NCBI GenBank assembly: GCA_964416695.1
Contig: CAYQFG010000001.1
Coordinates: 1-51,612, forward strand
Length of the DNA stretch: 51,612 nucleotides
Source: an uncultured Bifidobacterium sp.
GTDB lineage: Bacteria > Fibrobacterota > Fibrobacteria > UBA11236
Direction: 5' to 3'
Part shown: piece after piece, positions 9,500 through 51,612 of the stretch
Position numbering within the stretch: the stretch's first letter is position 1
How the letters are laid out: the number at the start of each line of letters is the position of its first letter
Position numbers and translations under genes: made by a program
Notes under the pieces: generated by a model
Told to the model about the DNA's origin: nothing
Database searches by the model: none
Seen by the model: only the letters and a program-made list of their open reading frames with translations

Positions 9500-11782
9500 T
9501 TACGGCAGGGTGGACTTCTGCACGAAGTTGGTGGCGGTGGCGCCGGCCTTCGTGGACACGCGGACGATGTACACGCCCGGCGCGGCGGAGTGGCCGGCCG
9601 CGGTACGACCGTTCCAGGTCAGGGTGCGGGTGCCGTCCTTGGCCGGGTGGGCGCTTTGCGACCACACCGTGCGGCCCCACGTGTCGACGATCGACAGCGT
9701 GAAGGACTCGGTGCTCTTGATGGCGTCTTCCGTCAGCACGAAGGTGAACGGACGGGCCGCACCGGTCTGCTGGATCGTGAAGGAGCCGGGCAGGAGGCCG
9801 ACCGGAGTGAGGGGAGCACTGGGCTGCGAAGCCGTGCCGCTCCCGGCGATGTTGGTTCCGACCACCGTGAAGGTGTAGGCCGTGCCGTAGGTCAGGCCCG
9901 CGTTGATGGTGCAGGTCAGGCCGCCGAACGCGGTGCACATGCCGCCGCCGGGGTTGCTGGTGACGGTATAGCTGAAGATTTCACCGCCGCCCGTGCTGGT
10001 GGGCGCGGTCCAGCTCACGCGGACGGACGGCGCCGTGCCGGCTCCGGAGGCGAGCACGGCGTTCACGCCGGTCGGCGCGCCGGGGACGCCGACGGGAGTC
10101 ACGGGCAACGACGGGGTGGACGCCGCACCGGTGCCGGCGCCGTTGGTGGCCGTGACGGTGAACGTGTAGGCGGTGCCGTTGGTCAAGCCCGTGATGGTGC
10201 AGGTCAGAGGACCGGACGTCCACGAGCACTCCTTGGTGCCGTCCTGCACGGACTTGACGGTGTAACCGGTGATGGGGCCGGTTCCGGTGGTCAGCGGCGC
10301 GGTCCACGTGAGGATGGCCTGGCCGTTGCCGCCGACGGCGGTGATGCTGGCCGGAGCGCCGGGGACCTGACCGGCGACGACGGAGATGGTCACGCTGTCG
10401 GTGGCGGTGGTGCCCCCCTGCAGGTTCGCCGTCACGATGTACTTCTGGGGGGCGGCGAGCGCTGTGGGCGTTCCCGTGAACGCACCCGTGCTGGTGTTGA
10501 AATTCAGGCCGGCGGGCAGCGTGGTCGGGTTGATCGAGAACGAGGTGGCGGTTCCGGTCACGACGGGCTTGTTGGTGTCGATGGCGACATTGCGCGCGTA
10601 GGCCGCGACGGATACCGGGTAGAACAGCGGAGCCTCACCCAGGCTTTGGGTCGCGCCCAGGGTCAGGGCGGTGGCGCCGGGCTTCGAGGTTTCGTACTCG
10701 AGCTTGATCCAGTTGCTGTTGCGGGCCACGTGCTGGGCGCGCACTTCGGCGATGGCGCCGTTCCAGAAGCGGTCTTCGCCTTCGGCCATGCGGCCGATGG
10801 CCACGGAGGTGTTGGTCGGCTGGCTGGCACCCGAAGCGGGAGCGTCCGCCGAGCCGGTGAGCACGCCGTTGACATAGATGGACATCACATTGGGGGTCTG
10901 CGAGCGGACGCCGACGATGTGCGTCCACTGCCCGGGCACGGCATGCTCGGACGACTGCGCTTCAGGCCAGCTGCCGCTGTTGCCGTAGAAGAACAGCCAG
11001 GGACCGGCCGCGTTGGTGTTGGCGCGCAGGGTCCACAGGTTGTCGTGCTTGGAGACGATGGTGGGGTAGGGCGTGTGTTCCACGGAGGTGGGACGCACCC
11101 ACGCCGAGATGGTGTAGTTCGTGGTGTTGAGGTAGTTGGCGCGGGCGGGGTTGTTGGTCACGAAGCCCTGACCGGTGGAGCCGTCCGACACCAGGTTCCG
11201 GTAGTAACCGACGCCACCTTCATCCGCACTGGCGGCATGGGAGCCGGAGTTGTTGAACTGGGTGGCGGTGAGTCCGCCGCCGGTCGCATCCTGCTCGTCG
11301 ACCAGACCGCCTTCGCCGGCACCGTTCATGTGCCAGACGGCGGTGAAACCCTTGGTGGTGTCGAACACGGCCGGGCCGTTCGACTCGCTGCTGGCGGCGT
11401 TGTTGCCCCAGTACATGCGGATCACGGTGTTGCCGTTCGCCGCCACGGTGGGCACGCGCACCCAGACGTCGGCACCGCTCGCCGTCCAGCGTTCGATCTC
11501 ATAGGACAGCGCCGTCTCGCCGTCTTCGGTGGTGAAGCGGATATCCGCACCACCGGCCTTGGCTTCGGCCAGGGCGTTGGCACCGGTGTTGATGTCGGCA
11601 TTCGTCAGACGAACCAGTACGGGGAAGTCGGTCACGGCGCCATTGACGTCGGCACCGCCGTTCGTGGCCGTGGTGTTGATCGTGATCGTCCGGTACTTGT
11701 TCCATTCGTCGTAAAGCGAGGCCGCGTGGCCGGCTGCGGCGAGCATCAGGGACAGGGTGGCACTGGCGGTTAGGATTCTCAT
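9500..11782 (-). CDS. Large secreted protein: DUF2341-like N-terminus, LamG/concanavalin-like region, Ig-like domain, three fibronectin-III repeats and a T9SS-type C-terminal sorting domain
   Basis: Signal peptide MRILTASATLSLMLAAAGHA. DUF2341-like block YRTITINTT...DFPVLVRL...DIRFTTEDG...YEIERW...VWVRVP...IRMYWGN. Three repeats of the form PGAP..I(T/N)AV...W(T)AP..TGG..I..Y(T)V. The C-terminal tail is LTWNGRTAAGHSAAPGVYIVRVS. Confidence 0.8.
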   Translation of the reverse strand: MRILTASATLSLMLAAAGHAASLYDEWNKYRTITINTTATNGGADVNGAVTDFPVLVRLTNADINTGANALAEAKAGGADIRFTTEDGETALSYEIERWTASGADVWVRVPTVAANGNTVIRMYWGNNAASSESNGPAVFDTTKGFTAVWHMNGAGEGGLVDEQDATGGGLTATQFNNSGSHAASADEGGVGYYRNLVSDGSTGQGFVTNNPARANYLNTTNYTISAWVRPTSVEHTPYPTIVSKHDNLWTLRANTNAAGPWLFFYGNSGSWPEAQSSEHAVPGQWTHIVGVRSQTPNVMSIYVNGVLTGSADAPASGASQPTNTSVAIGRMAEGEDRFWNGAIAEVRAQHVARNSNWIKLEYETSKPGATALTLGATQSLGEAPLFYPVSVAAYARNVAIDTNKPVVTGTATSFSINPTTLPAGLNFNTSTGAFTGTPTALAAPQKYIVTANLQGGTTATDSVTISVVAGQVPGAPASITAVGGNGQAILTWTAPLTTGTGPITGYTVKSVQDGTKECSWTSGPLTCTITGLTNGTAYTFTVTATNGAGTGAASTPSLPVTPVGVPGAPTGVNAVLASGAGTAPSVRVSWTAPTSTGGGEIFSYTVTSNPGGGMCTAFGGLTCTINAGLTYGTAYTFTVVGTNIAGSGTASQPSAPLTPVGLLPGSFTIQQTGAARPFTFVLTEDAIKSTESFTLSIVDTWGRTVWSQSAHPAKDGTRTLTWNGRTAAGHSAAPGVYIVRVSTKAGATATNFVQKSTLP

Positions 11783-12178: not shown

Positions 12179-14250
<2,072 letters not shown>

Positions 14251-14422
14251 GTCTCCGCAAAGGTACATCACTGCAGGACCGTGCGCCGGGATCCGCGGCG
14301 TCTGTCCACGGGGGCCGGCATCCGGAGACACCCGGGATGGCCCGCGGATCCCTTCCCGGGAAGCGTTTCCTTTCGGTCGTTGCTTCCCTTCGCTCCCTCC
14401 CCTGGTTTCTCGGGATCGGTCC

Positions 14423-14514: not shown

Positions 14515-14590
14515 GGGGATATAGCTCAGTTGGTAGAGCGCTTCGTTCGCAATGAAGAGGTCAGGAGTTCGACTCTCCTTATCTCCACCA
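14515..14590 (+). tRNA. tRNA-Ala (anticodon CGC), CCA encoded
   Basis: A manual cloverleaf fold works. The acceptor stem is GGGGATA/TATCTCC with the Ala identity pair G3:U70. The D arm is GCTC-AGTTGGTA-GAGC. The anticodon stem CTTCG/TGAAG carries loop TTCGCAA. The T arm is AGGAG-TTCGACT-CTCCT, and the 3' end is ACCA. Confidence 0.93.
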
Positions 14591-39341: not shown

Positions 39342-39532
39342 TCCGGCCTCCGGGCAATTTAAAACACTCGATGGTGGTGGGCTGCTGCCTTCAAGCACCT
39401 GGCAACCCCCAAGGACCAACCACCAACTCCGGGCAGGGTCACCGGAGCGTGTGCTGCCGCCCGCCCCGCAGGGGCGTTTGCCCCCCGTACTCCCCGATAT
39501 CAGAACGTCCCCAAAGTGGTACCTTTCCCCCC

Positions 39533-40900
39533 ATGTTCGAACAACTGACAACCAAGCTCGACTCCGCCTTCAAGCGCCTGCGTGGCCAGGACCGGATCAC
39601 CGAAGAAAACGTTTCCGAATCATTGCGCGAAGTCCGCGTCGCGCTGCTGGCGGCGGACGTGCATTTCCAGACCGTCAAGGAATTCATCGCGACGGTGAAG
39701 GCCAAGGCCCTCGGGGCGGAAGTGTTGTCGTCGGTGAGTCCCGGCCAGATGATCATCAAGATCCTGCACGACGAAATGGTGCAGTTGCTGGGCGGACAGG
39801 CCGAAGAACCGCGTTTTCTGGGCAGCCCCCCCGTGGGCATTCTGATGATGGGTTTGCAGGGGTCGGGTAAAACCACCGCGTCGGGCAAGCTGGCGTTGCA
39901 TGTGCGCGAAAAGTGGAAGCGCAAACCCATGCTGGTGGCCTGCGACGTGTATCGTCCCGCCGCCATCGACCAGCTCAAGGTGTTGGGCGCGCAACTGGGC
40001 GTTCCGGTTTATGACGAAGGCGCGGGCGATCCGGTGCGCATCGCGCAGAACGGCCTCAAGGCCGCGCGCGAGCAGGGCTGCGACACGGTGATCTTCGACA
40101 CCGCGGGCCGTCTCCAGATCGACGACGACCTGATGATCGAGCTTGAAAGGATCCAGGCCGCGGTCAAACCCGCGGAACGGTTCTTCGTGGCCGATGCCAT
40201 GACCGGCCAGGAGGCCGTCAATGTGGCGAAGGCCTTCAATGACCGTCTCGACTTCACGGGGGTCATCCTGACCAAGATGGACGGCGATGCGCGCGGCGGT
40301 GCCGCGCTGTCGGTGAAGTCCGTCACGGGCAAACCCGTGCGCTACGTGGGCACGGGGGAAAAGCTCGACGCGCTCGACCTGTTCCACCCCGACCGCATGG
40401 CCTCGCGCATCCTCGGCATGGGTGACGTGCTCACGCTGGTGGAAAAGGCGCAGGAGATCTACGACGAGAAGGAAGCGAAGAAGCTTCAGAAGAAGATGCT
40501 GGGCAACAAGTTCGATCTGAACGACTTCCTGACCCAGCTGCGGCAGATGAAGAAAATGGGGTCGATGGCCGACATGATGGCGATGATCCCCGGTCTCGGC
40601 AAACTGGCCGGAAACGCCAATGTGGACGAGAGCAAGCTGAAGTACACGGAGGCCATCCTCACCTCCATGACGGCCAAGGAGCGGACGAATCCGAAGATCA
40701 TCGACGGGCGTCGCCGCTTCCGCATCGCGGCCGGCAGCGGCACCACCCTGCAGGAAGTGAACCAGGTGCTCAAGCAGTTCGACCAGATGCAGAAGATGAT
40801 GAAGCAGGTGTCGGGCATGGCCGGCAAGGCCGGCGGCATGAAGCAGCTGCAGCGCATGATGCAGCAACGCGGCGGGCGCGGCGCCTTTCCGGGGCGCTGA
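39533..40900 (+). CDS. ffh: Signal recognition particle protein Ffh
   Basis: Preferred ATG at 39533 (MFEQLTTKLDSAFKRL). Contains GLQGSGKTT, DTAGR, TKMDGDARGG and a Met-rich M domain. Confidence 0.95.
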   Translation: MFEQLTTKLDSAFKRLRGQDRITEENVSESLREVRVALLAADVHFQTVKEFIATVKAKALGAEVLSSVSPGQMIIKILHDEMVQLLGGQAEEPRFLGSPPVGILMMGLQGSGKTTASGKLALHVREKWKRKPMLVACDVYRPAAIDQLKVLGAQLGVPVYDEGAGDPVRIAQNGLKAAREQGCDTVIFDTAGRLQIDDDLMIELERIQAAVKPAERFFVADAMTGQEAVNVAKAFNDRLDFTGVILTKMDGDARGGAALSVKSVTGKPVRYVGTGEKLDALDLFHPDRMASRILGMGDVLTLVEKAQEIYDEKEAKKLQKKMLGNKFDLNDFLTQLRQMKKMGSMADMMAMIPGLGKLAGNANVDESKLKYTEAILTSMTAKERTNPKIIDGRRRFRIAAGSGTTLQEVNQVLKQFDQMQKMMKQVSGMAGKAGGMKQLQRMMQQRGGRGAFPGR

Positions 40901-41014
40901 CCCCCTCCGGAAAAAGCGGTGCGAACCAACCGATCAGGAACAGGCGTTGCAACGGCACAGGCACCTGCCCGGCCGGCGGGATGGGCGCCTGTCGGCGCTT
41001 GCCCGCCGGCCTGG

Positions 41015-41242
41015 TCAGCGTGCGCCGCGCGCCTTTTTACGCGACGCCGCGGCCCCTTCGGACATGGGAATCACGTTCGGCCACACGGAAAACTCCGCGC
41101 TGGGCGACAGGGGCAGCACGCGCTGCTGGCGCTTGCGCCCGCCGGACAACGCGAAACGGGCGTAGGGGAAAAAGCCCGGCTGGTCGATGTCCACGGCGAG
41201 CGGGGTCCGGTCGAAACCGGAGTTCTGGTTCGAGGTTTCCAT
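41015..41242 (-). CDS. Small hypothetical protein (75 aa), downstream of the TIM-barrel gene
   Basis: The ATG is preceded by AAAGGAGAAACAT, a strong Shine-Dalgarno site. Third positions are G/C-biased. It sits 40 bp after the stop of the upstream same-strand gene. Confidence 0.55.
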   Translation of the reverse strand: METSNQNSGFDRTPLAVDIDQPGFFPYARFALSGGRKRQQRVLPLSPSAEFSVWPNVIPMSEGAAASRKKARGAR

Positions 41243-41282
41243 ATGTTTCTCCTTTTGACGTTCTGAAAAATGGGGCGTCCGG

Positions 41283-42191
41283 TTACCCGTAGCGCTTGTT
41301 GAACTCGTCCACGGCGGTCTTGCACTGTTGCGTCGCGGGCCATGCGTTGGGCCAGAAGCACAGGTCGATCGTCCACCAGTCGTGCTTCACGCCGGCGTTG
41401 GCCGTCAGTTCCTGCAGCACGGGGCCGAAGTCGATGTTGCCGTCGCCGATGGGGGTATGCGTGCTGGTTCCGTGTTCGTTCAAGGAACCGTCGCAGTCGA
41501 TCAACTGGATGGCGTTGATCTTGCCGCGCAGCTTTTTCGCCAGCTCCAGCACGCCGTCGTCGGAGACTTCCTTCTCGCCGCCGGTCTGGCGCAAGCCGAC
41601 CACCGCGCAGGTGTAGGCGTGGCAGGTGTCGAACATGGCGCCGAAGTTCTTCGAGCCGCTCATGGCGTCGACCAGTTCGATGATGTCGGAAGGCCGGTTG
41701 AAGATGAAGCCGGGTTCGAATTCCCACGTCACGTCGATGCCGAAGTCGGCCGCCATCCGGCACACTTCGGTCCAGGTCTTCACGATGCGGTCGCGGGCAA
41801 CGTCCTTGCCGACGGTGTCCATCACTTCGGGAGGCTGCACGGTGTCCACGCGGAACAAGGTGATGCCCAGGTCATGTGCGAATTCAAGGTTCTTGCGGAC
41901 GGTTGCGAGGTACGACTTGCCGCCGTCCTCGGCATCGGCCAGATGCTCGCTCCACATGTCGCCGGCCAGTCCCGAAAACTGCAGACCGTTGCTTTCCACC
42001 AGATCCTTCAAGGTCCTCCGCGATTCCTTGGTCGGATGATTGTCGGGCGTGGGGTGCTGGCCGAAGGCGCCGAGTTCGAGGCCATCGAACTTCATGTCGC
42101 GCAAACCTTCGACCACAGTGCGGAACGGAACGGGATTTTCGGCGTACGGGCCAACCGAATAAGCCCAGGTGCCTATGGAAACCTTGTGCAT
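41283..42191 (-). CDS. Xylose-isomerase-like TIM-barrel protein (sugar phosphate isomerase/epimerase family)
   Basis: 302 aa. The start is preceded by AAGGAGGTGA. The family pattern fits (FDGLELGAFG, ITLFRVDT, WEFEPG, FDTCH, IQLIDCDG). Confidence 0.75.
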   Translation of the reverse strand: MHKVSIGTWAYSVGPYAENPVPFRTVVEGLRDMKFDGLELGAFGQHPTPDNHPTKESRRTLKDLVESNGLQFSGLAGDMWSEHLADAEDGGKSYLATVRKNLEFAHDLGITLFRVDTVQPPEVMDTVGKDVARDRIVKTWTEVCRMAADFGIDVTWEFEPGFIFNRPSDIIELVDAMSGSKNFGAMFDTCHAYTCAVVGLRQTGGEKEVSDDGVLELAKKLRGKINAIQLIDCDGSLNEHGTSTHTPIGDGNIDFGPVLQELTANAGVKHDWWTIDLCFWPNAWPATQQCKTAVDEFNKRYG

Positions 42192-42440
42192 TTCACCTCC
42201 TTGACCGGACGCCGGTTTTTCCGGCTCCGGTACTCTATCAGTCTACCAGTCCGGGGCGAAAGGTTGTTGTATTAATTGCGGATGAATGGGTATTATTTCG
42301 GCGTGGTGTTTGGGGGGTAAAGCGGGCCCGAAACCGGGCCCGGGTGCAGGGGGCCGCAAAATCGCCCCTGAATATGAGGTTATTCTTCCTGATCGTCCTC
42401 ATGCGGCCCGTTTTGGAGGCTGCCGGAAAGGGTATTTTTT

Positions 42441-43196
42441 ATGACCACTGATCCACGAGCCTTCAAGCGCGCCTTCCTGGATTCACTCGACAGCCTGGGG
42501 GGGCTCGAGCAGTTGTTCGAAAACGTGCCCAATCTCTGGTTCTGGGTGAAAGATCGCGAATGTCGTTACGTCACTGCAAACCAGAACAGCGTGAAGATGT
42601 GCGGCGGCCGGACGGAAGCCGACCTCATCGGCAAAAACGATTTCGATTTTTTTCCCAAGCACAATGCCGAAGCGTTTCAACGCGACGATCTCTCCGTCGT
42701 GAAGTCGGGAATCAAGATCGTGGATCGCGTGGAGCCCATCACACTGGAAGACGGCAGCATCCGGTGGCACTCGACCAACAAGATGCCGTTGTACGGACGC
42801 GACGGCACCATCATCGGTGTTGCGGGGACGACCCGTGTTCTGGACACCAACGGCACACCCGACCCGGTCTACGCCGAGTTCGCCGGGGTCATCGACCACA
42901 TCAACCGAAATTACGCGCAACCCATCCAGATCGAACAGCTGGCGCGCATGATGTCGCTGTCCATCAGTCAGTTCGAACGGCGCTTCAAGCAGATTTTCCA
43001 GGAGGCGCCCGTGCGTTTCATCGTGAAAATCCGCGTGAATGAAGCCTGCAAGCTGCTCGTCAATACCCGCCAGCCCGTGGCCTGGATCGCCCGGGCCACG
43101 GGTTTTTTCGACCAGAGCTACTTCTCCAAGCAGTTTTCCCGCCGCATGGGCATGAGCCCGCGGCAGTACCGGGAGAAGTATTACCAGGGGGGGTAG
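42441..43196 (+). CDS. PAS-domain AraC-family transcriptional regulator
   Basis: N-terminal PAS-like region (WFWVKDRECRYVTANQNSVKMCG...). C-terminal AraC HTH (IEQLARMMSLSISQFERRFK...VAWIARATGFFDQSYFSKQFSRRMGMSPRQYR). Confidence 0.85.
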   Translation: MTTDPRAFKRAFLDSLDSLGGLEQLFENVPNLWFWVKDRECRYVTANQNSVKMCGGRTEADLIGKNDFDFFPKHNAEAFQRDDLSVVKSGIKIVDRVEPITLEDGSIRWHSTNKMPLYGRDGTIIGVAGTTRVLDTNGTPDPVYAEFAGVIDHINRNYAQPIQIEQLARMMSLSISQFERRFKQIFQEAPVRFIVKIRVNEACKLLVNTRQPVAWIARATGFFDQSYFSKQFSRRMGMSPRQYREKYYQGG

Positions 43197-43466
43197 GGGG
43201 GGGCTGGAGGTCAGGTGCGCCCGGGCCTCCCGGGGTCCGGACGTCGGATTTGCGGAATCATGCTGTTTCCGTGCGGTTTTGGTCGAAAAGAAACATTAGA
43301 GGTATGAATTGATCCTTTGTTGTCGTGCACGTTCTGGTCTGATGCGGTACATTAGGGCTCTGTTTGGACAAGTTTTCGCCATGACGGGGGTAGGGTCGTA
43401 TTCCGGCCTGCCGGATCAGGGCGGATCCGTGAACCGCGTATTCGCGAACCGAAGGAAGCTGGACGC

Positions 43467-44735
43467 ATGGAAAGAGCCGGAGTGAAGGGCGCATTTTTCG
43501 CGTTATCGTTGTGTTTCGTCTCCGCGCTCCCGCTTCGGGCCCAGGAGCAGACGTTTCTCACGGCCGATGACCTCAAGGTGAGCGGTTATGCCGATTTCGG
43601 ACGCTTTCAGTTGAGCGATGCGGAGTCCAAGGGGTCCAACGGGGAAGTGATCAGCCGCGTGGGAGCCCGCTGGGGAATCGACAAGGCCCTCAACGACAAC
43701 TGGTCCGTGATGGGCAAGCTGCACTGGATGCTGTGGCGCAATCATGCGACCGACATCTCCATGTTTCACATCGCGGGATTGAAGTTCGATGCCGACATGC
43801 AGGCGGCGTTGACGTGGGCGGCGCCCACGGGCGAAGACACCTGGCAGCTGGCCCGTTTCGGCGTGTACGATTACAAGTACAATGCGGATTCGCGGAATCT
43901 CGGTGAATACCTCCTCCGCTCGGAAGCCTATCCCACGATTCTGGAAAGCTCCCAGGGCAAAGACCTGATGGCCGACTCCCACAACCGCATGGCGGGCGTC
44001 GAATACCAGCGGCGCGAGTCGTCCCTCTTCACGCATACGGCGTTGCTCTACGCCGAAATGTTTTCCCAGCCTGTCTACGACCTGAACGTGGCGTACATCA
44101 ACACGTTCGGCAGCGAGAAAATGAACGTGGGTTTCGGGGTGGCCTGGTCGCGCTTCGTCAAGCTCAGCGCCTCCGACAGCAACACCACGATCGGGAACGC
44201 CCAGTACGACTACATCCGCTCTTCGGGGCTGACCACCGAGGCCCTCAAGTTCAGCCTGCGGGCGCGGGCGGAACTGCTGTCCTTGCCCCGCTGGAACGAG
44301 GCCCTGGTCCTTTACGGCGAAGCCGCGTTGCTCGGCCTCAAGGACGACACCCTCTATTACACCGACGTGATGGAACGCATGCCGATGATGGTCGGAATTT
44401 CGCTGCCCACGGCCGGCATCCTGACGTCGCTGGCTGTGGAGTATGAGTACTTCAGGAATCCGTACGGCGATCACCGGTACGAAATCCGTTATGCGCCGAC
44501 GCCCCTCCCGGTGCTGGACGATTACTCCGGGGCGCTGCCCAATTTCACCCGGGACGATCATCGCTGGAGCGTGCAGGCCCACCGTGCGCTCAACCCCTGG
44601 CTGGACGTGAAGGTTCGCGTCGCCAGCGATCATCTCCGCCTGCGCAGCTGGGACGGGGACTACAGCATCACCGCGCCCATGACCCGGAGTGCCCGCGACT
44701 GGTACTTCCTGGCGCGCATCGAATTTCACAACTGA
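43467..44735 (+). CDS. Putative outer-membrane beta-barrel protein, uncharacterised family (paralogue 1)
   Basis: Signal peptide ...FALSLCFVSALPLRAQE. Alternating hydrophobic pattern with an aromatic-rich C-terminus (WYFLARIEFHN). Clear similarity to the next ORF. Confidence 0.65.
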   Translation: MERAGVKGAFFALSLCFVSALPLRAQEQTFLTADDLKVSGYADFGRFQLSDAESKGSNGEVISRVGARWGIDKALNDNWSVMGKLHWMLWRNHATDISMFHIAGLKFDADMQAALTWAAPTGEDTWQLARFGVYDYKYNADSRNLGEYLLRSEAYPTILESSQGKDLMADSHNRMAGVEYQRRESSLFTHTALLYAEMFSQPVYDLNVAYINTFGSEKMNVGFGVAWSRFVKLSASDSNTTIGNAQYDYIRSSGLTTEALKFSLRARAELLSLPRWNEALVLYGEAALLGLKDDTLYYTDVMERMPMMVGISLPTAGILTSLAVEYEYFRNPYGDHRYEIRYAPTPLPVLDDYSGALPNFTRDDHRWSVQAHRALNPWLDVKVRVASDHLRLRSWDGDYSITAPMTRSARDWYFLARIEFHN

Positions 44736-44779
44736 CGGCCGCACGGCACGCACGAACGGGACGAACAAGGAGAACATGG

Positions 44780-46201
44780 ATGCTTAAAGCGGTTTCAGTA
44801 GCTTGCGCGGCGGGGCTTTCCCTCGCCCTCGGGGTGTCCGCCCAGGAGACGGAATCCCGGAAGAAACTCACGTTGTTCACGGCGTTCGATGTCGGGCGCA
44901 TTGAAGCGGGCGAAGATCCCCGTGAAAACGGTTTTAACGGATACGACGCGGCCGGGACGGCCCTCAACCGGACCTACGTGAACGTCGGCTTCACCGAACG
45001 CCTGGACGACAAGTACCTGGTGAGCGTCGGTGTGGGTGGCATCTTCTGGCGCGCCTTCGCCGCCAGCAGCACGACCCCCGACGACAAGGTGATCCGCTTC
45101 GGGCCCGGCATTTCCAATGCCTACATGCAGTATTTCCCCACGGAAAACACCGACCTCACCTTCGGCTTCTTCCCGTACAAGTACAACGCCGCCGCGCGCA
45201 ACCTGGGAGAATACCTGTTCCGTACGGAAGCGTATCCCACCATTCTGTACACCGGCGGCTGGGGCTGGATCAACGAAGCCCAGTACTCCACGCTGGGCGT
45301 CAAGTTCGCCGCCAACACCCTGGACGGGACGTTGCGTCATGAGGTCGGGCTGTTCGGAGAGTATTTCAATGCGCCGATTTACGACATCACCCCGGCTTAC
45401 ATCGCCACCTGGAAGCCGACGTCCTGGCTGACCGTGGGGGGGGCCGGTGCCTTGCACCGTTACATCTCTCCCACTCCCAAGACCAAGCGTGAACTCACGA
45501 AGAACCATGCCTACCGCAAGGATTTCTACGTGCCCGGCGACGCGGGGCGTCCTGCTGAAAACCTCACCATGCTGGAGTCGGATCTTCAGACCTACGTCAT
45601 CATGGCCGGGCTGAGCTTCGACAGCGTGGCCGCGCTTCCCCAGAATACCGGGGCAGGCGTCGACAGTGTCTCCTTCGATCTGGCGGCGGTGAAGCTGATG
45701 GCCTTCTTCGAAGTGGACTTCAACCAGTTGCTCGGCTTCAACGAAGCGCGCATGGGCAAGTTCAACCTCTACGGCGAAGTCGCCCAGCTCGGCCTCAAGA
45801 ACCATCCCATTTTCTACACGGAAATGTCCCAGCGCCGCCCCATGATGCTCGGTTTCAGCGTGCCGACCTTCGGTTTGCTGAACAACCTTTCCCTTGAACT
45901 GGAATACCTCGACAACCCCAACGTGGCCAGCATCGCCAGCACCTACGACCGGCTCAACCTGGTCCCCGAGGACAACCTGCTGATCGATCAGGACACCTTT
46001 CGCTACAGGACCTTCCACAAGGATGACTTCAAGTGGTCGGTGCACGCCTCGCGCTCCCTGTCGGAGTACCTGAGCTTGTATGTTCAGGTTGCCAACGATC
46101 ACATGCGCCTTAAGGACAAAAACACCACCCCCCAGTTTGTTCCCGTGACCAACGAAAAGGGACACTGGTACTGGCTGGCGCGCATTCAGTGGGCGATCTG
46201 A
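44780..46201 (+). CDS. Putative outer-membrane beta-barrel protein, uncharacterised family (paralogue 2)
   Basis: Signal peptide MLKAVSVACAAGLSLALGVSAQE. Blocks shared with paralogue 1: RNLGEYL(L/F)R(S/T)EAYPTIL, YGE.A.LGLK, RRPMM(V/L)G(I/F)S(L/V)PT, DD(H/F)(R/K)WSV(Q/H)A, V(A/A)(S/N)DH(L/M)RL and WY(F/W)LARI. Confidence 0.65.
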   Translation: MLKAVSVACAAGLSLALGVSAQETESRKKLTLFTAFDVGRIEAGEDPRENGFNGYDAAGTALNRTYVNVGFTERLDDKYLVSVGVGGIFWRAFAASSTTPDDKVIRFGPGISNAYMQYFPTENTDLTFGFFPYKYNAAARNLGEYLFRTEAYPTILYTGGWGWINEAQYSTLGVKFAANTLDGTLRHEVGLFGEYFNAPIYDITPAYIATWKPTSWLTVGGAGALHRYISPTPKTKRELTKNHAYRKDFYVPGDAGRPAENLTMLESDLQTYVIMAGLSFDSVAALPQNTGAGVDSVSFDLAAVKLMAFFEVDFNQLLGFNEARMGKFNLYGEVAQLGLKNHPIFYTEMSQRRPMMLGFSVPTFGLLNNLSLELEYLDNPNVASIASTYDRLNLVPEDNLLIDQDTFRYRTFHKDDFKWSVHASRSLSEYLSLYVQVANDHMRLKDKNTTPQFVPVTNEKGHWYWLARIQWAI

Positions 46202-46262
46202 AGTTTGATTTCGGATCCCAAGGACGCGTGACAAGATTAAAATGAGCATCAGGAGGAGCAAT

Positions 46263-47618
46263 ATGAAAACCGTCATCACACCTTGGACCCGGGGTCTGGC
46301 TCTCAGCCTGATCGCGGGACTGGGGGCTGTTCAGGCCCAAGACAAAAATCCGGCCGCGCGCACCCACGTCAAGATCGTGGATGGACAGGCCGTGAAGTTC
46401 ACGTCCAAGTTGAAGAAAGTCGTCGAGCTGAACTTCACCTTTGGCTTCCACCACAGCGAAAGCAAGCCGCTGATCTCCAACACGCTGACGCGCGTAGCGG
46501 AAACATACGGTAGCGAGGGGGTGCCTGCCTTCACTGTGCAAAAACACGTGGGTCCCAACAACGGGGCGTCCAACGGCCTCCCCACTCCCGATTTCACCCT
46601 CGCCGACCTGACCAGCGCCCAGGTGATTTTCGCCAACCAGATCAGCGCGATGGGCAGCAACTCACTGGGCGTGGCACGTCGTAATGCCATCCAGACCGCC
46701 GTGGAGGGCGGGGTCGGTTATTTCCACCTCCACGGCAGCGGCGATGACGAAACCCGCGCCTGGTCGTGGTACACGAACGTGCTTCATCCCATGAATTACG
46801 CCAGCCATGGTGCCAACACCAACGGACCGGTGTACAAAAACCCCACTGAGAAGAAGCACATCGTCACCGCGAACGTTCTGGAAACCGGCATGCATGAAGT
46901 GCGCGAGGTTCCCACGTCGGTGGATGCCGGCGGCAATGAGGTGCTGACCCAGGAACCGGTGCGCATCATCCGCAACGAGTGGTACCGCTTCGGCAACGAC
47001 ATCCGCACCATGCCGGAGCACAAGGACAAGGTGACCGTGCTGTCGCTGTACGACCCGCGCGAGTTCAGCAATTCGATGCTGGCCCCCCAGTACCGGCGCA
47101 AGGGCGGCAACATGTACACCTACCTGTTCAAGGTCGGCAACGGCATGTCGCACTACTTGCCCGCCGGTCACGACAACCTCGAAATCATGGGCGGCGACTA
47201 CGCCTTTGACGGCAAGGTCGGTGACTGGGACCGTTACTTCGCCCAGGTGTTGTTTTTCCTCGCCGGCTACGACCAGACGCCCTGTGACGCCTCCTGCGAC
47301 GACCTGCCGGTGGTCACGGCCGAGAACCACCTGACGGGCACGACATACGCCACCTCCATCGCGGGCGGCTACAAGCTGTTGCCCAATGGTGTCGACCTGC
47401 ACGACTCCCGTCTGGAGTTCTCCCTGGCCGCGCCGGTGAACTATCGCGCGCAGGTCCTCGACGTTTCGGGCAAGACCGTTCTGCAGGCGGCGGGGCATGG
47501 CACCAGCTACGCCTTCGACCAGTCGGCCTTGCAGCCCGGAGTATACTTCATGCGGGTGACGATGCCTGGCATTCAGGGCCCGGTCATGAAGCGCTATATC
47601 CTCGCGGCTTCCCGTTAA
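46263..47618 (+). CDS. Secreted ThuA-like (class I glutamine-amidotransferase-like fold) protein with T9SS-type C-terminal sorting domain
   Basis: Preferred ATG at 46263, preceded by AGGAGGAG. Signal peptide ...LIAGLGAVQAQD. ThuA-like blocks GFHHSES, GGVGYFHLHGSGD, WSWY, NEWYRF and HYLPAGHDN. C-terminal tail QVLDVSGKTV...LQPGVYFMRVT. Confidence 0.6.
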   Translation: MKTVITPWTRGLALSLIAGLGAVQAQDKNPAARTHVKIVDGQAVKFTSKLKKVVELNFTFGFHHSESKPLISNTLTRVAETYGSEGVPAFTVQKHVGPNNGASNGLPTPDFTLADLTSAQVIFANQISAMGSNSLGVARRNAIQTAVEGGVGYFHLHGSGDDETRAWSWYTNVLHPMNYASHGANTNGPVYKNPTEKKHIVTANVLETGMHEVREVPTSVDAGGNEVLTQEPVRIIRNEWYRFGNDIRTMPEHKDKVTVLSLYDPREFSNSMLAPQYRRKGGNMYTYLFKVGNGMSHYLPAGHDNLEIMGGDYAFDGKVGDWDRYFAQVLFFLAGYDQTPCDASCDDLPVVTAENHLTGTTYATSIAGGYKLLPNGVDLHDSRLEFSLAAPVNYRAQVLDVSGKTVLQAAGHGTSYAFDQSALQPGVYFMRVTMPGIQGPVMKRYILAASR

Positions 47619-47708
47619 TCGGAGATGGTGGTGGGGGGAGCGGCGACGCCCTCCCTCACGGGCAATCCCGGGTCGCCGGGTTGACCCGGGCCACCGGAGT
47701 TCTCCTCA

Positions 47709-47743
47709 CAAAAAACGCGCTCCTTGCAGGAGCGCGTTTTTTG
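47709..47743. terminator. Bidirectional intrinsic terminator
   Basis: AAAAAACGCGCTCC-TTGC-AGGAGCGCGTTTTTT between convergent genes. Confidence 0.85.
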
Positions 47744-47798
47744 TTGTGACGGATCCTTGGTTTCAGGAACGCGCACCCGGCGGCCACCCTCGCGCGGT

Positions 47799-49595
47799 TT
47801 ACAGCTGCGCGTGGTTCTCACGCGCATGCGCGTAATCGGGGGCGAGACGCAGCGCGGCTTCGTACAAACGCCGCGCGCGGTCGCGGTTGCCCGTGGCATG
47901 TTCGACCATTCCGAGATAATTGAGCGCGGCGGGCTGGGCCGAATCCAGGGCGAGAGACCGCTCCAGATACGGCTTCGCATCCAGGCCGCGGCGCTGTTGC
48001 AACAGTGAAAACGCGAGACCGTAATAAACCGACGCGTTGGTGGTGTCGGCGTGCAGCAGCGCCCGGAACGCGGGTTCTGCGTGATCCGCACGTCCGGTCG
48101 CCATATACAGGGACGCCAGGGCGCTGTTGATGTCCGTGTCGAGCGGGTCCTGCGCGCGCGCCTTCTCGAAGGCCGCGATCGCACCGTTGGTGTCGGCGAG
48201 CCGCAGGGACAGGTCAGCCACGAGGATTTCCAGAAAGGCGTAGTTGGTGTCCAGCGCGATCGCCCGGTGATACGCGGCGCGCGCGGCCTCCAGGTCTCCG
48301 GCGGAAGCCAGATCGGTGCCGTGCAGGAAATGCGCGTAACCGTTGCGGGGAATGGCCTCAACGAGGCTGGCGGACATCCCTTTTTTCTGCTCTTCCGTCC
48401 AGTGGAACCGTTCGGAAGCCGCCAGGGCCAGCGAACCCGTCAGAAAGACGCCGACAAACGCCCAGTGCTTCACCGTGGCCAGACTCCAGCGGCGGGGTGG
48501 AGGAGGGGCGGCCGTCCCGGCTTTCATGCCGAGATCCTGGAGAACCTTGGCGTCGCGCACCTTCCAGATGAAGCCATCGAGATAAAAATGAATCAGGGCC
48601 GAGCACGCGAAAATCGTCCCGACCTGACTCCAGAAACTGCTGTAGGCGGCCCGGTTTTCATACACCTCGAGCAGGTCGTGGCCCACCATCCCGATCGCCC
48701 CGTAGAGCAGGATGCAGGCGGTGTAAATGAGGATGCGCTTCCCCGATGCGTGAAACAGGTAGCGTTCCACCCGGCTGCTGGAGAGTTCGCGTTTCACCCG
48801 GCTGCGGTTGTAACTCCAGACGAAAGCGTTGTACTGCAGGTCATGGAAAATCTCCCACAACAGAAGCCCGATGATCAGGTTGTCGATGGTGATCATGCAG
48901 TAGGCCCAAAACGTGAAACTGACGAGCATGGTGCCGAGCTTCAGGGGGTTGAAGCGCCCTTGCGTGTATCCGTAGGCCGTTGTGGCCACAAACAGGATGG
49001 TGACTCCGATCGTCAGCGCCAGCCATCCCGTTTCGAGGGCCCTTACGGTTCCTGGAGGGAACAGGGGGCCTCCCGCCATGTAGAAGGTTCCGAGGATGGA
49101 CATTTTTTTGCCGGAAGACCACAGGATGATCTGCACGAACCAGGTGAGGCTCATCCAGAAGTCGAGGCGGGCGGTGAGCGCGGAATGAATACCGGCCTTG
49201 GCATCGTAAATCCGCAGAAAACCGTGAACCTGCATGATGCCGTGCCACGTCCCCCACACGATCAGCAAAAAGAAGATGAAGGTGAGCTTGTAGAAGGCCG
49301 CCAGCACCGTCAGCATCAGGATCAGCGCGGGGACGATGACCAGACGGGCGCGGAATTTCTGGAAAACGACGGGGTCGGTGTAGGCCCGGATGAAACCGGG
49401 GAGGTGATGTCCCGTGGCGCTCAGTGACAGCACCAGGGCTTTCAGGAACACCAGCGGCAACAGCCATGAGGCGGCATGAAAAAGCGGAATGATGGCCAGG
49501 GGTGTGGCGATGAAAAAAGCCATGTCCTGCCACGGTCCGATCAGCCAGCGGCCATCGGGGCGGGAAGAGGCGGTTGTCGGGGCCGGATGCGTCAT
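47799..49595 (-). CDS. Polytopic membrane protein with conserved His motifs fused to a C-terminal TPR domain
   Basis: The N-terminal ~380 aa has about ten hydrophobic segments and His-containing blocks (ATGHHLPGFIRAY, WGTWHGIMQVHGF, WEIFHDLQYNAFVW, LIHFYLDGFIWK). The C-terminal ~200 aa contains TPR-like repeats (AYHRAIALD, AFEKARAQDP, YYGLAFSLLQQ, LYEAALRLAPDY). Confidence 0.7.
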   Translation of the reverse strand: MTHPAPTTASSRPDGRWLIGPWQDMAFFIATPLAIIPLFHAASWLLPLVFLKALVLSLSATGHHLPGFIRAYTDPVVFQKFRARLVIVPALILMLTVLAAFYKLTFIFFLLIVWGTWHGIMQVHGFLRIYDAKAGIHSALTARLDFWMSLTWFVQIILWSSGKKMSILGTFYMAGGPLFPPGTVRALETGWLALTIGVTILFVATTAYGYTQGRFNPLKLGTMLVSFTFWAYCMITIDNLIIGLLLWEIFHDLQYNAFVWSYNRSRVKRELSSSRVERYLFHASGKRILIYTACILLYGAIGMVGHDLLEVYENRAAYSSFWSQVGTIFACSALIHFYLDGFIWKVRDAKVLQDLGMKAGTAAPPPPRRWSLATVKHWAFVGVFLTGSLALAASERFHWTEEQKKGMSASLVEAIPRNGYAHFLHGTDLASAGDLEAARAAYHRAIALDTNYAFLEILVADLSLRLADTNGAIAAFEKARAQDPLDTDINSALASLYMATGRADHAEPAFRALLHADTTNASVYYGLAFSLLQQRRGLDAKPYLERSLALDSAQPAALNYLGMVEHATGNRDRARRLYEAALRLAPDYAHARENHAQL

Positions 49596-49831
49596 GATCG
49601 TTTCATAAAGTACTGTAATCTCGTGCTCAGCGCATGGGACGGTCCGGAATCCTGCGAATCTTCATGAATCGCCGATGTGGACCGGATCGTACGCATTTTG
49701 TAACATAATGGTCTTCAAATAGTGCTACAAGACGCCGAAAAAGTACCACTTTGAAAGCGGGTGTTCCCTACATTCAGGCACGATCACATTTGGGAAGTCC
49801 AAGGTGCCTGCGGGCCCGGGCAGGAGGTTTC

Positions 49832-51612
49832 GTGAAGAAAACATATTTGAATCCGGGAAAGAGCCGCTTGCTCTCGCTGGCGATGCTGGCAGTGGCCGTG
49901 CCTGCCGCCGCGCAATATTCCTTCGACGGCTGCACCGACCTGCAGCCCACCGATTTCCAGCGTACGGAACTGTTCAGCCGCAGCGGCAGCACGGGGGCCA
50001 CGACGGTGCCCGACCTGTCCGAACCCGTGGCGATGGCCTTCCATGCCGTGAAGTCGGGGGATTCCGTGGTGGGTGCGGACATCTACTTCGTCCAGCGCAA
50101 GGGGTCGTTCCGCAAGTATGACTTCACCACCAAGGCGGTGAAGCAGATCGGTTTCATCAACACCGCCGAAACCGTGGAAGGCGGAAACGGCGACAACGGC
50201 CTGATGGGCGTAGCGCTTGATCCGGGTTTCCAGACCAACCGCTGGGTGTACCTGTGGTACGTGCCTCCGCGCGTGGGCCAGGCCAATTACCGGGCCCGCC
50301 TCTCCCGCTTTACCCTCGGCGCCAACGACACGTTGCAGCCCGCCACTGAGAAAAACCTGATCGACATTCTGCTCAGCAAGACGCGCCAGTGGCACGCGGG
50401 CGGCCCCATGCGCTTCGACGCCCACGGCGACCTGTGGGTGACCATCGGCAATAACGGCAACGACTTGAGCGGCAACGGGTCCCAGTATTCAACCACCGAC
50501 AGCAACAGCAGCCAGGAGTGGGGCTCGTCCAGCACCGCCAGCATGCGCGGCGGCGTGATCCGCATCAAGCCGGACAATTCCGAAAAGGGGTATTCCATCC
50601 CTGAAGGAAACTTCGGTCAGTACTGGGCCGATCATTTCGAAAAGAACGGCAATGCGACGTTGGCGGCCGAATATCGCGACCCGGCCAAGGTCTTGCCCGA
50701 AGTGTACGTCAAGGGAACGCGCAGCAACTTTTCCATCTGGGTGCATCCGACCAAGCGCTGGCTGGCCTGGGGCGAAGTCAACTACCAGACCACCAACGAC
50801 GAGTATCACATCCTGACGACGCCCGGGTTCACGGGCTTCCCGTACTGGCACAAGAACAACATCGCGACGCCCTCGGGTTCCTGGACGGCCCCGGTGGGTC
50901 ACAGCGTCGCGACGCCCCTCAACAACTCGCCCCTGAACAGCGGCGTGAAGCAGCTGCCGCCCGCCGAATCCGCCACACTGTGGTTCCAGAGCGGCGCCCC
51001 CACGGCGACGACGCTGCCCACGAACGTGGCCATCGGCGGCGACGTGTACCTCTACGACCGGAACCTGAAGTCGGCCGTCAAGTTTCCCCCTCACTTCCAT
51101 CACGTGTGGTTGATGATGCAAAGCATCCACAATCAGGTCCAGGTCTACGGGAGCGTGATCGACAGCAATACCGTGACCGTGAAGACGACGCCCGCGCGCC
51201 TGGACAACGGCGTGCTGGCCCTGAACACCGCGCCCGGCAACGTGCGTCGCCCCGTTCAGGCCTCTTACGGTCCTGACGGCGCGCTGTACTTCCTGAACTA
51301 CGGCGGCGGCGATTATGCTGCGAACGCGAACTCCGGCGTGTTGCGGGTGACCTACACGGGCAGCTGCCACCTGGATCCGGTTTCGGTGATGGCCCCCAAG
51401 CCGCTGTCCGAACTCCGCACCCGCTTCCATGCGGGCCGCCTGAGCGTGCTCGAGCCGGGGCGTCACACCCTCGCGCTGTACGCGGCTTCGGGTCGCGAAG
51501 TGTTCCGCGCTTCGGGTGAGTTGGGTGCGTCGTATGACCTGAAGGCCCTGCGCGGTTCCGCGACCGGTGTGTACACCGTGCGCGTCACCACGGACAAGGG
51601 CACTTTCGCGCG
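49832..51612 (+). CDS. Secreted PQQ-type glucose/sorbosone dehydrogenase-like beta-propeller protein with T9SS-type C-terminal domain, 3' end cut by window edge
   Basis: My own translation from the GTG at 49832, preceded by AGGAGG. This frame is not in the ORF track because no stop is reached. Signal peptide VKKTYLNPGKSRLLSLAMLAVAVPAAAQ. Contains NGLMGVALDPGF..NRWVYLWY, WHAGGPMRFDAHGDLWVTIGNNG, GGVIRIKPD and GPDGALYFLNYGG. The tail reads TLALYAASGREV...TGVYTVRVTT. Confidence 0.7.
   Translation, partial: MKKTYLNPGKSRLLSLAMLAVAVPAAAQYSFDGCTDLQPTDFQRTELFSRSGSTGATTVPDLSEPVAMAFHAVKSGDSVVGADIYFVQRKGSFRKYDFTTKAVKQIGFINTAETVEGGNGDNGLMGVALDPGFQTNRWVYLWYVPPRVGQANYRARLSRFTLGANDTLQPATEKNLIDILLSKTRQWHAGGPMRFDAHGDLWVTIGNNGNDLSGNGSQYSTTDSNSSQEWGSSSTASMRGGVIRIKPDNSEKGYSIPEGNFGQYWADHFEKNGNATLAAEYRDPAKVLPEVYVKGTRSNFSIWVHPTKRWLAWGEVNYQTTNDEYHILTTPGFTGFPYWHKNNIATPSGSWTAPVGHSVATPLNNSPLNSGVKQLPPAESATLWFQSGAPTATTLPTNVAIGGDVYLYDRNLKSAVKFPPHFHHVWLMMQSIHNQVQVYGSVIDSNTVTVKTTPARLDNGVLALNTAPGNVRRPVQASYGPDGALYFLNYGGGDYAANANSGVLRVTYTGSCHLDPVSVMAPKPLSELRTRFHAGRLSVLEPGRHTLALYAASGREVFRASGELGASYDLKALRGSATGVYTVRVTTDKGTFA

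Follow-up and report, generated by a model that had tools for sequence, protein, structure and literature searches.

Eight genes at positions 41015–51612 of the 51,612-nucleotide stretch of DNA analysed here (the window; contig CAYQFG010000001.1) contain what appears, from gene content and linkage, to be one copy of a paralogous envelope module that is present in multiple copies in environmental Fibrobacteria. The module core (43467–47618, 47799–49595 and the gene starting at 49832) encodes two porin-like outer-membrane barrels, a secreted ThuA-family protein with a C-terminal sorting domain of the type IX secretion system (T9SS), a polytopic membrane protein combining conserved histidine motifs with TPR repeats (the His-motif/TPR protein), and a secreted beta-propeller resembling pyrroloquinoline quinone (PQQ)-type sugar dehydrogenases (the GSDH-like protein). 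It is tentatively proposed that the module captures and imports carbohydrate, and would thus be similar in function to Sus-type systems; the probability of this reading is put a little below even.

The window proteins were compared with 85 fetched loci, and genes were then called and all proteins clustered on 76 distinct barrel loci (numbered with the prefix L). The original prediction treated the eight genes as one conserved unit, which did not hold: all eight are syntenic only in the nearest relative (L001; about 85–90% protein identity). Co-localisation in relatives was found for five genes, namely those for the two barrels and the ThuA-family, His-motif/TPR and GSDH-like proteins, and not for the TIM-barrel gene, the PAS-AraC regulator gene and the 75-residue open reading frame (ORF). 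Among the compared loci, orthologues of the TIM-barrel gene occur only in L001 and L020, and PAS-AraC-like regulators lie near the barrel modules in about 5 of the 76 (L001, L004, L035, L066 and L074).

A ThuA-family gene is present in 56 of the 76 barrel loci, and 58 of the 72 ThuA-cluster proteins are encoded directly next to a barrel gene (42 at +1, 16 at −1). Forty-seven ThuA-cluster proteins are too diverged to be detected by tblastn with the window protein, and 44 of these match PF06283 (best E-value 8.6e-52). The place of ThuA is taken by a protein of the DUF1080/3-keto-disaccharide-hydrolase family or by a CBM6 protein in 11 further loci, which gives a combined count of 67/76; replacement by the DUF1080 type was seen in 8 loci. 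The His-motif/TPR protein is encoded in 25/76 loci and the GSDH-like protein in 16/76, while 13 more carry a DUF7133-like propeller with a T9SS tail.

The order of the genes varies. L042 and L043 contain a single co-directional array, barrel–barrel–ThuA–His-motif/TPR–GSDH, with gaps of at most 30 bp, and the order in L047 and L055 is DUF7133(T9SS)–ThuA–barrel–barrel–His-motif/TPR. The GSDH gene lies 11 bp 3' of the ThuA gene in L002 and adjoins the His-motif/TPR gene in L022 and L028. At least seven module loci were found in JANYDA01 and six each in JAHFCH01 and JBDSIO01. Regulators differ between the copies, being of either the PAS-AraC or the TIGR02147/DUF4423 type, in 7 loci the orthologous cassette has genes for SBP_bac_5 binding proteins of ABC importers at its flank, and 3 modules have GFO_IDH_MocA genes nearby. 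That the genes stay linked in spite of paralogy (about 30% identity) and rearrangement gives good grounds for assuming a shared function. The presence of many paralogous modules per genome and the family-wide rule that ThuA lies beside the barrels were both missed in the original prediction.

Protein families of the module

The two barrels are paralogues with 28% identity, and the barrels of the modules span about 420–560 residues. An alignment-based AlphaFold2 (AF2) model of barrel 2 is a confident beta-barrel (pLDDT 82.7, pTM 0.81), which Foldseek matched to OmpM1 (E 5e-12), followed by OprB, chitoporin, OmpF and AlgE, with a TM-score of only about 0.44. The earlier view that these proteins are porin-like and not TonB-dependent was borne out by the porin matches and by lengths of 422 and 473 residues without a match to any SusC/TonB-receptor family. 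No Pfam or NCBIfam matches of the barrels were found, nor any sequence matches of the family profile in the PDB; since porin fold matches are thus combined with the lack of a relative in these databases, the barrels are taken to be a new family, porin-like and specific to this lineage. Relatives of barrel 2 numbered 275 in a scan that covered one genome per species. None of its homologues is a named protein, and where a source is given, which is the case for a few, it is a metagenome-assembled genome (MAG) of Fibrobacteria/Fibrobacteres; the 78 kept loci with a phylum-level label are all from Fibrobacterota MAGs, one of them Chitinivibrionales.

The barrel genes form 46 pairs, 8 triplets and 28 singles, many of the latter at contig ends. 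Orthologues of barrel 1 keep the first position in L001–L003, L010, L011 and L013–L015, and the best cross-locus matches share the array position in 45/46 and 44/45 cases. The possibility of an ancient A/B pair forming an obligate heteromer was rejected, as the position is shared in only 53% of the top 30 matches and the median scores are alike. There is no family-wide A/B split, and the conserved order therefore reflects orthologous loci.

Most domain assignments of the original prediction (TIM barrel, PAS-AraC, TPR and GSDH) were recovered directly by profile, while ThuA was reached only through orthologues and profile comparison. PF06283 is matched at E ≤ 0.01 by 22 of the 26 orthologues (best 1.1e-15), and Por_Secre_tail by 12 of the 26. 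Comparison by hhalign of the window ThuA subfamily with strongly ThuA-positive neighbours gave a probability of 100% (E 5e-47) over the full length including the sorting tail, and a match to PDB entry 4jqs was found with an E-value of 2.3e-8. An exact-sequence look-up of the window protein returned no records. The protein contains an N-terminal signal peptide and a T9SS tail scoring 25.6 bits against TIGR04183 (cut-off 23), and by these features it is predicted to be type-A cargo of the T9SS (TIGR04183/PF18962). ThuA-like folds have been described in the levan-binding domain of the surface glycan-binding protein of the Bacteroides levan utilisome (PMC7618045), in the carbohydrate-binding module of Agd3 (PMC7229062) and as a domain of PelA (10.1101/2024.06.28.601253).

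The His-motif/TPR protein comprises about 11 predicted transmembrane helices in residues 1–400 and TPR repeats in residues 400–598. Its AF2 model (pLDDT 85.2) consists of about ten helices, a further transmembrane helix at 371–397 and then the TPR part. The alignment of the N-terminal domain contains 40 invariant positions, with His, Asp, Arg, Tyr and Trp motifs; they include H63, H64, R70, Y72, D74, H118, Q122, R128, Y130, D131, D145, K219, E248, H251, H336, Y338 and R347. Loops 252–286 and 338–376 carry 8 and 7 Lys/Arg residues and are therefore cytoplasmic by the positive-inside rule, so that the invariant cluster would face the cytoplasm and the TPR arm would extend into the periplasm. The profile of the N-terminal domain (A4) had no Pfam or PDB match at E ≤ 10 and no NCBIfam match at E ≤ 1, while Foldseek with the full model and a PDB profile search with the full-length alignment both returned TPR proteins only. 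This profile matches 885 clusters (50% identity) at E ≤ 1e-3; in the 9 full-length distant members a Pfam scan found only TPR repeats after the N-terminal domain, and the contexts of distant homologues (L088–L090) gave no functional clues. The window protein was also found at 100% identity on Logan contigs of SRR10083318.

In four loci (L037, L050, L052 and L058; for example, L052 2770–4728) the place of the His-motif/TPR protein is occupied by a TMEM260-like membrane protein with a TPR tail; TMEM260-like proteins belong to the GT-C, protein O-mannosyltransferase family. The identity of the His-motif domain as a divergent GT-C/TMEM260-like transferase was rejected, the hhalign probability for A4 against the profile of the TMEM260-like neighbours (A7) being 0.1%. 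In a complete-chromosome MAG (L082, OY970309.1, 7711–12100), the His-motif/TPR gene and one barrel gene have broken frames, with 4 stop codons and a split match, due either to long-read assembly errors or to pseudogene formation.

The GSDH-like gene starts with GTG after AGGAGG, and the end of the window cuts its product 6 residues short. The protein scores 50.8 bits against PF07995 (cut-off 25), and matches PDB entries 3a9g (E 4e-4) and 2ism (E 1.4e-3). Two sorting tails had been proposed for this region: that of the ThuA-family protein stood, and that of the GSDH-like protein is borderline, since it scores 21 bits in the window and 22.3 in the full 599-residue copy in L086 against the cut-off of 23.

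Carbohydrate uptake and alternative explanations

In the proposed uptake system, the ThuA-family protein would be exported by the T9SS, probably held at the cell surface, and would bind or modify a sugar, which the GSDH-like propeller may oxidise. The barrel pair would pass the sugar through the outer membrane, while the TPR protein might tie the outer-membrane parts to the inner membrane or process a lipid-linked or imported product. The product could be handled in the cytoplasm by the TIM-barrel enzymes, whose genes are linked with that for GSDH, and the PAS-AraC protein would regulate the window copy. Uptake is favoured because all of the barrel-side partners belong to carbohydrate-related secreted families (ThuA, DUF1080, CBM6 and GSDH-like), and it is preferred to export because of the many copies per genome, the copy-specific regulators and the flanking ABC importers. 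It is further supported by the ThuA-like folds, known to serve for glycan binding in an outer-membrane uptake machine (PMC7618045) and to form a carbohydrate-binding module (PMC7229062), and by the barrel fold matches, which include the sugar-specific OprB and chitoporin.

Several observations weigh against uptake. The window ThuA protein itself scores only 23.1 bits against PF06283, below the gathering score of 33.4. The PF07995 match of the GSDH-like protein covers only profile positions 18–137 of 332, and its assignment as a PQQ-type sugar dehydrogenase is a putative one, made at the family level. Glycoside hydrolases are not enriched beside the modules among the families listed (the first 25 of 133, from 120 flanking proteins), the commonest of which are DUF4423 and CarboxypepD_reg, followed by housekeeping families; the L006 cassette is located among housekeeping genes. 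The His-motif/TPR protein is present in only one third of the modules and is found on other contigs outside the barrel context, and the site facing the cytoplasm and the TPR arm in the periplasm that are predicted for it would, next to a barrel, suit an export system too. Finally, the proposed function is a prediction from genes and models, as are the display of proteins at the cell surface, the class of substrate, the direction in which it is carried, a possible oxidation and the orientation of the polytopic protein in the membrane.

The main alternative, which is considered unlikely, is that the module exports or assembles a surface polysaccharide or other envelope polymer. The polytopic protein would then act, on the cytoplasmic side, on a lipid-linked or nascent polymer and the TPR arm would lead it to the barrels, as in AlgK/AlgE, PelB, BcsC and PgaA, with the ThuA-family protein in a role like that of the ThuA-like domain of PelA, binding the polymer or trimming it. 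The AF2 model and the alignment, which together predict that the conserved residues lie on the side away from the TPR arm, are consistent with this explanation, as are AlgE among the barrel fold matches, the replacement of the His-motif protein by a TMEM260-like GT-C protein with TPR in 4 sister loci, the ThuA-like folds of the polymer-modifying PelA (10.1101/2024.06.28.601253) and Agd3 (PMC7229062), and the housekeeping surroundings of L006. However, no GT2 synthase or polymer-synthesis family is present among the eight genes or the families reported for five cassette loci, and no synthase appears among the first 25 of the 133 families of the flanking proteins. The presence of at least 6–7 paralogous modules per genome would be unusual for polymer export, ABC importers flank 7 orthologous loci, and two thirds of the modules lack the His-motif/TPR protein altogether.

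Carbohydrate uptake is also preferred to the version put forward originally, in which the eight genes form one PAS-AraC regulon for surface oxidation of sugars or glycosides of the 3-keto type. This version, for which the likelihood is lower still, agrees with the synteny of all eight genes in L001, with the occurrence of DUF1080/3-keto-disaccharide-hydrolase-family proteins in the ThuA place, with GFO_IDH_MocA genes near a few modules and with the conserved trio of TIM, GSDH and second TIM-barrel genes. The structure of L020 (JAJNBB010000029.1, 11533–15385) bears on this trio. Here the orthologues of the TIM-barrel gene (90% amino acid, 84.5% nucleotide identity) and the GSDH gene (75.6% nucleotide identity) lie side by side in divergent orientation, with the block of AraC, barrel, ThuA and His-motif/TPR genes absent between them, and a second TIM-barrel gene, which is IolE-like (78% amino acid identity), comes next. 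It follows that in the window lineage a 7.6-kb block of these genes lies inside a TIM–GSDH–TIM trio, and the partner of the TIM-barrel gene thus appears to be the GSDH gene, not the barrel module. Beyond the nearest relative neither the TIM-barrel nor the AraC gene is kept with the barrels, the region contains no GFO/IDH/MocA oxidoreductase gene, and GSDH-type enzymes oxidise C1, not C3. As a separate observation, a paralogous cassette is located about 4 kb upstream of the TIM–GSDH pair in L020.

Least probable is the view that the barrels are general constitutive porins of the lineage, which would lack a specific substrate and whose neighbours would act in outer-membrane biogenesis or in the modification of proteins: the family is indeed large and lineage-wide, some copies lie among housekeeping genes, and polytopic enzymes with TPR partners, including TMEM260-like O-mannosyltransferase relatives, are found near barrels, but the partners are carbohydrate-related throughout (ThuA, DUF1080, CBM6 and GSDH) and many copies have dedicated regulators beside them.

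Gene order and genomic setting of the region

All eight genes of the region, with their signal peptides and Shine–Dalgarno (SD) sites, were confirmed by ORF calls and inspection of the sequence, and their coordinates are listed in the table.

Table. Features of the region at 41015–51612 of the window
Feature	Position	Strand	Basis
75-residue ORF, probably a real small gene	41015..41242	-	GC3 0.86, SD site, no family match
Xylose-isomerase-like TIM barrel (AP_endonuc_2)	41283..42191	-	PF01261, 97.9 bits
PAS_4 + HTH_18 AraC-family regulator, candidate local regulator	42441..43196	+	Pfam
Porin-like outer-membrane barrel 1, 422 residues, signal peptide	43467..44735	+	28% identity to barrel 2
Porin-like outer-membrane barrel 2, 473 residues, signal peptide	44780..46201	+	AF2 model, Foldseek
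Secreted ThuA-family protein, predicted T9SS type-A C-terminal sorting domain	46263..47618 (ORF opens at 46242)	+	profiles, orthologues
Bidirectional intrinsic terminator between the convergent ThuA-family and His-motif/TPR genes	47709..47745	both strands	sequence, folding
Polytopic His-motif/TPR protein, predicted inner-membrane, 598 residues	47799..49595	-	AF2 model, profiles
AT-rich divergent intergenic region common to the His-motif/TPR and GSDH-like genes	49596..49831	.	GC 0.504
Secreted GSDH-like (PQQ-type sugar dehydrogenase-like) beta-propeller, probable T9SS tail	49832..51612	+	PF07995

The tight spacing of the three-gene unit was also confirmed: the first gap is 44 bp, and the second is 40 bp from the ORF opening or 61 bp from position 46263, which is the likely start of the ThuA gene and has a better SD site (AGGAGGAG). 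The strong bidirectional terminator described earlier has folding energies, calculated for 47700–47752, of −27.7 kcal/mol (z-score −5.8) on one strand and −28.9 kcal/mol (z-score −7.1) on the other, and a U run is present on either strand. The intergenic regions 42250–42440, 43260–43380 and 49600–49800 had been called AT-rich, and their GC contents of 0.55, 0.455 and 0.473 against a window mean of 0.64 (5.3, 0.5 and 0.3 percentile among windows of the same size) agree with this; the whole region between the His-motif/TPR and GSDH-like genes lies at the 0.7 percentile.

The TIM-barrel gene is preceded by a strong SD site (AAGGAGGTGAA), and its product has no signal peptide. Its match to AP_endonuc_2 (PF01261) is well above the gathering score of 31.1 bits, and the closest named models are psicose epimerase and IolE, with scores far under their cut-offs. 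The 75-residue ORF also has a strong SD site (AAAGGAGAA), and its GC content at third codon positions (GC3) is like that of the real genes of the window. No Pfam or NCBIfam family matches this ORF, and its counterpart in L001, located in the same place, is 71 residues long and 50% identical, while the neighbouring genes are 87–90% identical. It is probably a real small gene, and by this comparison its product appears to be a fast-evolving small protein.

The regulator scores 57.3 bits to PAS_4 and 78.3 bits to HTH_18. TIGR02147/DUF4423 proteins are a commoner neighbour of barrel modules than PAS-AraC, being found in 18 loci. A conserved gene pair lies upstream of many modules (L003, L010, L013–L016, L024 and others; for example, L014 1834–4667). 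Its first gene encodes a TIGR02147/DUF4423 protein of about 294 residues, scoring 297.8 bits to 'Fsuc_second', a Fibrobacter paralogous family, and the second a CarboxypepD_reg-domain protein of about 640 residues.

The whole block from the 75-residue ORF to the GSDH-like gene, together with a second, IolE-like TIM barrel past the window end, is located between ffh and rpsP-rimM-trmD, as traced from window positions 39371–51612 onward through L086 1–5920 and L001 12859–15960. Because ffh and rpsP-rimM-trmD are normally contiguous, it seems that about 12.5 kb has been inserted here into a housekeeping array.

The nearest assembly, GCA_964555105.1, encodes proteins about 85–90% identical to those of the window. 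It is labelled 'uncultured Bifidobacterium sp.' (L008, CAZKRC010000012.1) and a second assembly 'uncultured Bifidobacteriales'; these labels are probably wrong, since Fibrobacteria are indicated by the gene content as well as by every relative. Elsewhere in the window most genes are housekeeping ones, among them panB, gyrA, hisS, mltG/YceG, ilvC, ffh and genes for a penicillin-amidase-family protein and an FGGY kinase. It also contains a small signal recognition particle RNA (534–632, + strand), a tRNA-Ala(CGC) (14515–14590, + strand) and a thiamine pyrophosphate (TPP) riboswitch directly 5' of thiC (12182–14256, − strand). A 760-residue protein with DUF2341, Laminin_G_3, fn3 and FlgD_ig domains is encoded at 9503–11782 (− strand), and the Laminin_G_3 + DUF2341 family recurs near barrel modules in 6 other loci.

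Relation to known systems

The module resembles the Sus-like polysaccharide utilisation loci (PULs), or utilisomes, of Bacteroidota in being a multi-copy gene set that combines an outer-membrane channel, a surface carbohydrate-related partner and its own regulator; in both, the cargo would reach the surface by a lineage-typical route, and the levan surface glycan-binding protein has a ThuA-like fold (PMC7618045). However, the channels of the window module are porin-like, too short for SusC and without a match to TonB-receptor families, and the partner has no lipid anchor but a T9SS tail. The region encodes neither a SusC barrel with a plug domain nor a SusD lipoprotein, and no resemblance to SusC or SusD was detected with Pfam and NCBIfam. 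Since glycoside hydrolases are not enriched in the flanks among the families listed, the module is comparable with PULs in its logic but not in its content.

Canonical ThuA is a cytoplasmic protein paired with ThuB, an enzyme of the GFO/IDH/MocA type. With thuEFGKAB, the operon by which rhizobia and Agrobacterium use trehalose and sucrose isomers, the module has in common sugar-uptake ABC binding-protein genes, found near some of its copies, and probably the ThuA family (PF06283), as judged from orthologues and profile comparison. In contrast to the cytoplasmic, ThuB-paired arrangement, the window protein has a signal peptide, a T9SS tail and outer-membrane barrel partners, and a Pfam scan of 41015–51612 found no ThuB-type gene.

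The loci of OprB, chitoporin ChiP and LamB-type porins are alike in that a porin-like fold is encoded beside uptake or catabolic genes. The window barrels differ in having no sequence relation to these proteins in the PDB or Pfam, profile search included, and in that the module usually has its barrel genes in tandem, as two or three paralogues, together with a secreted partner that is obligatory. Synthase-dependent exopolysaccharide export systems (AlgK/AlgE, PelB, BcsC and PgaA) likewise combine a periplasmic TPR arm with an outer-membrane barrel, and PelA has a ThuA-like domain. In the module, however, the TPR repeats are fused to a polytopic, predicted inner-membrane protein and not to a barrel or lipoprotein, no glycosyltransferase synthase is present among the reported families, and there are many copies per genome.

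Neither the barrel family nor the His-motif membrane domain is represented by a model in Pfam or NCBIfam. A limited search of the literature on ThuA with Fibrobacter and on the ThuA/ThuB mechanism found no description of the module. The module appears to be a so far undescribed form of outer-membrane nutrient-uptake locus, with a fair chance of being a distinct paradigm for the phylum. In a bolder form, which is rather less likely than uptake as such, environmental Fibrobacteria would own a multi-copy counterpart of SusCD, in which a barrel pair of a new family is capped by T9SS-anchored ThuA and GSDH-like proteins and, in one subfamily, bridged to the inner membrane by a polytopic enzyme with a metal-site-like centre and a periplasmic TPR arm. 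If this is true, a first defined role would be at hand for the widespread secreted proteins with ThuA domains.

Fibrobacterota are major degraders of plant fibre, and to our knowledge the passage of sugars through their outer membrane is poorly understood. Secreted ThuA-domain and GSDH-like proteins are, as far as we know, abundant and unexplained in several phyla. If carbohydrate uptake by the module is confirmed, its multi-copy hallmark set would provide a handle for predicting substrate-specific loci of Fibrobacterota, as SusC/SusD does for Bacteroidota, and would give the secreted ThuA-domain and GSDH-like proteins a role that can be tested.

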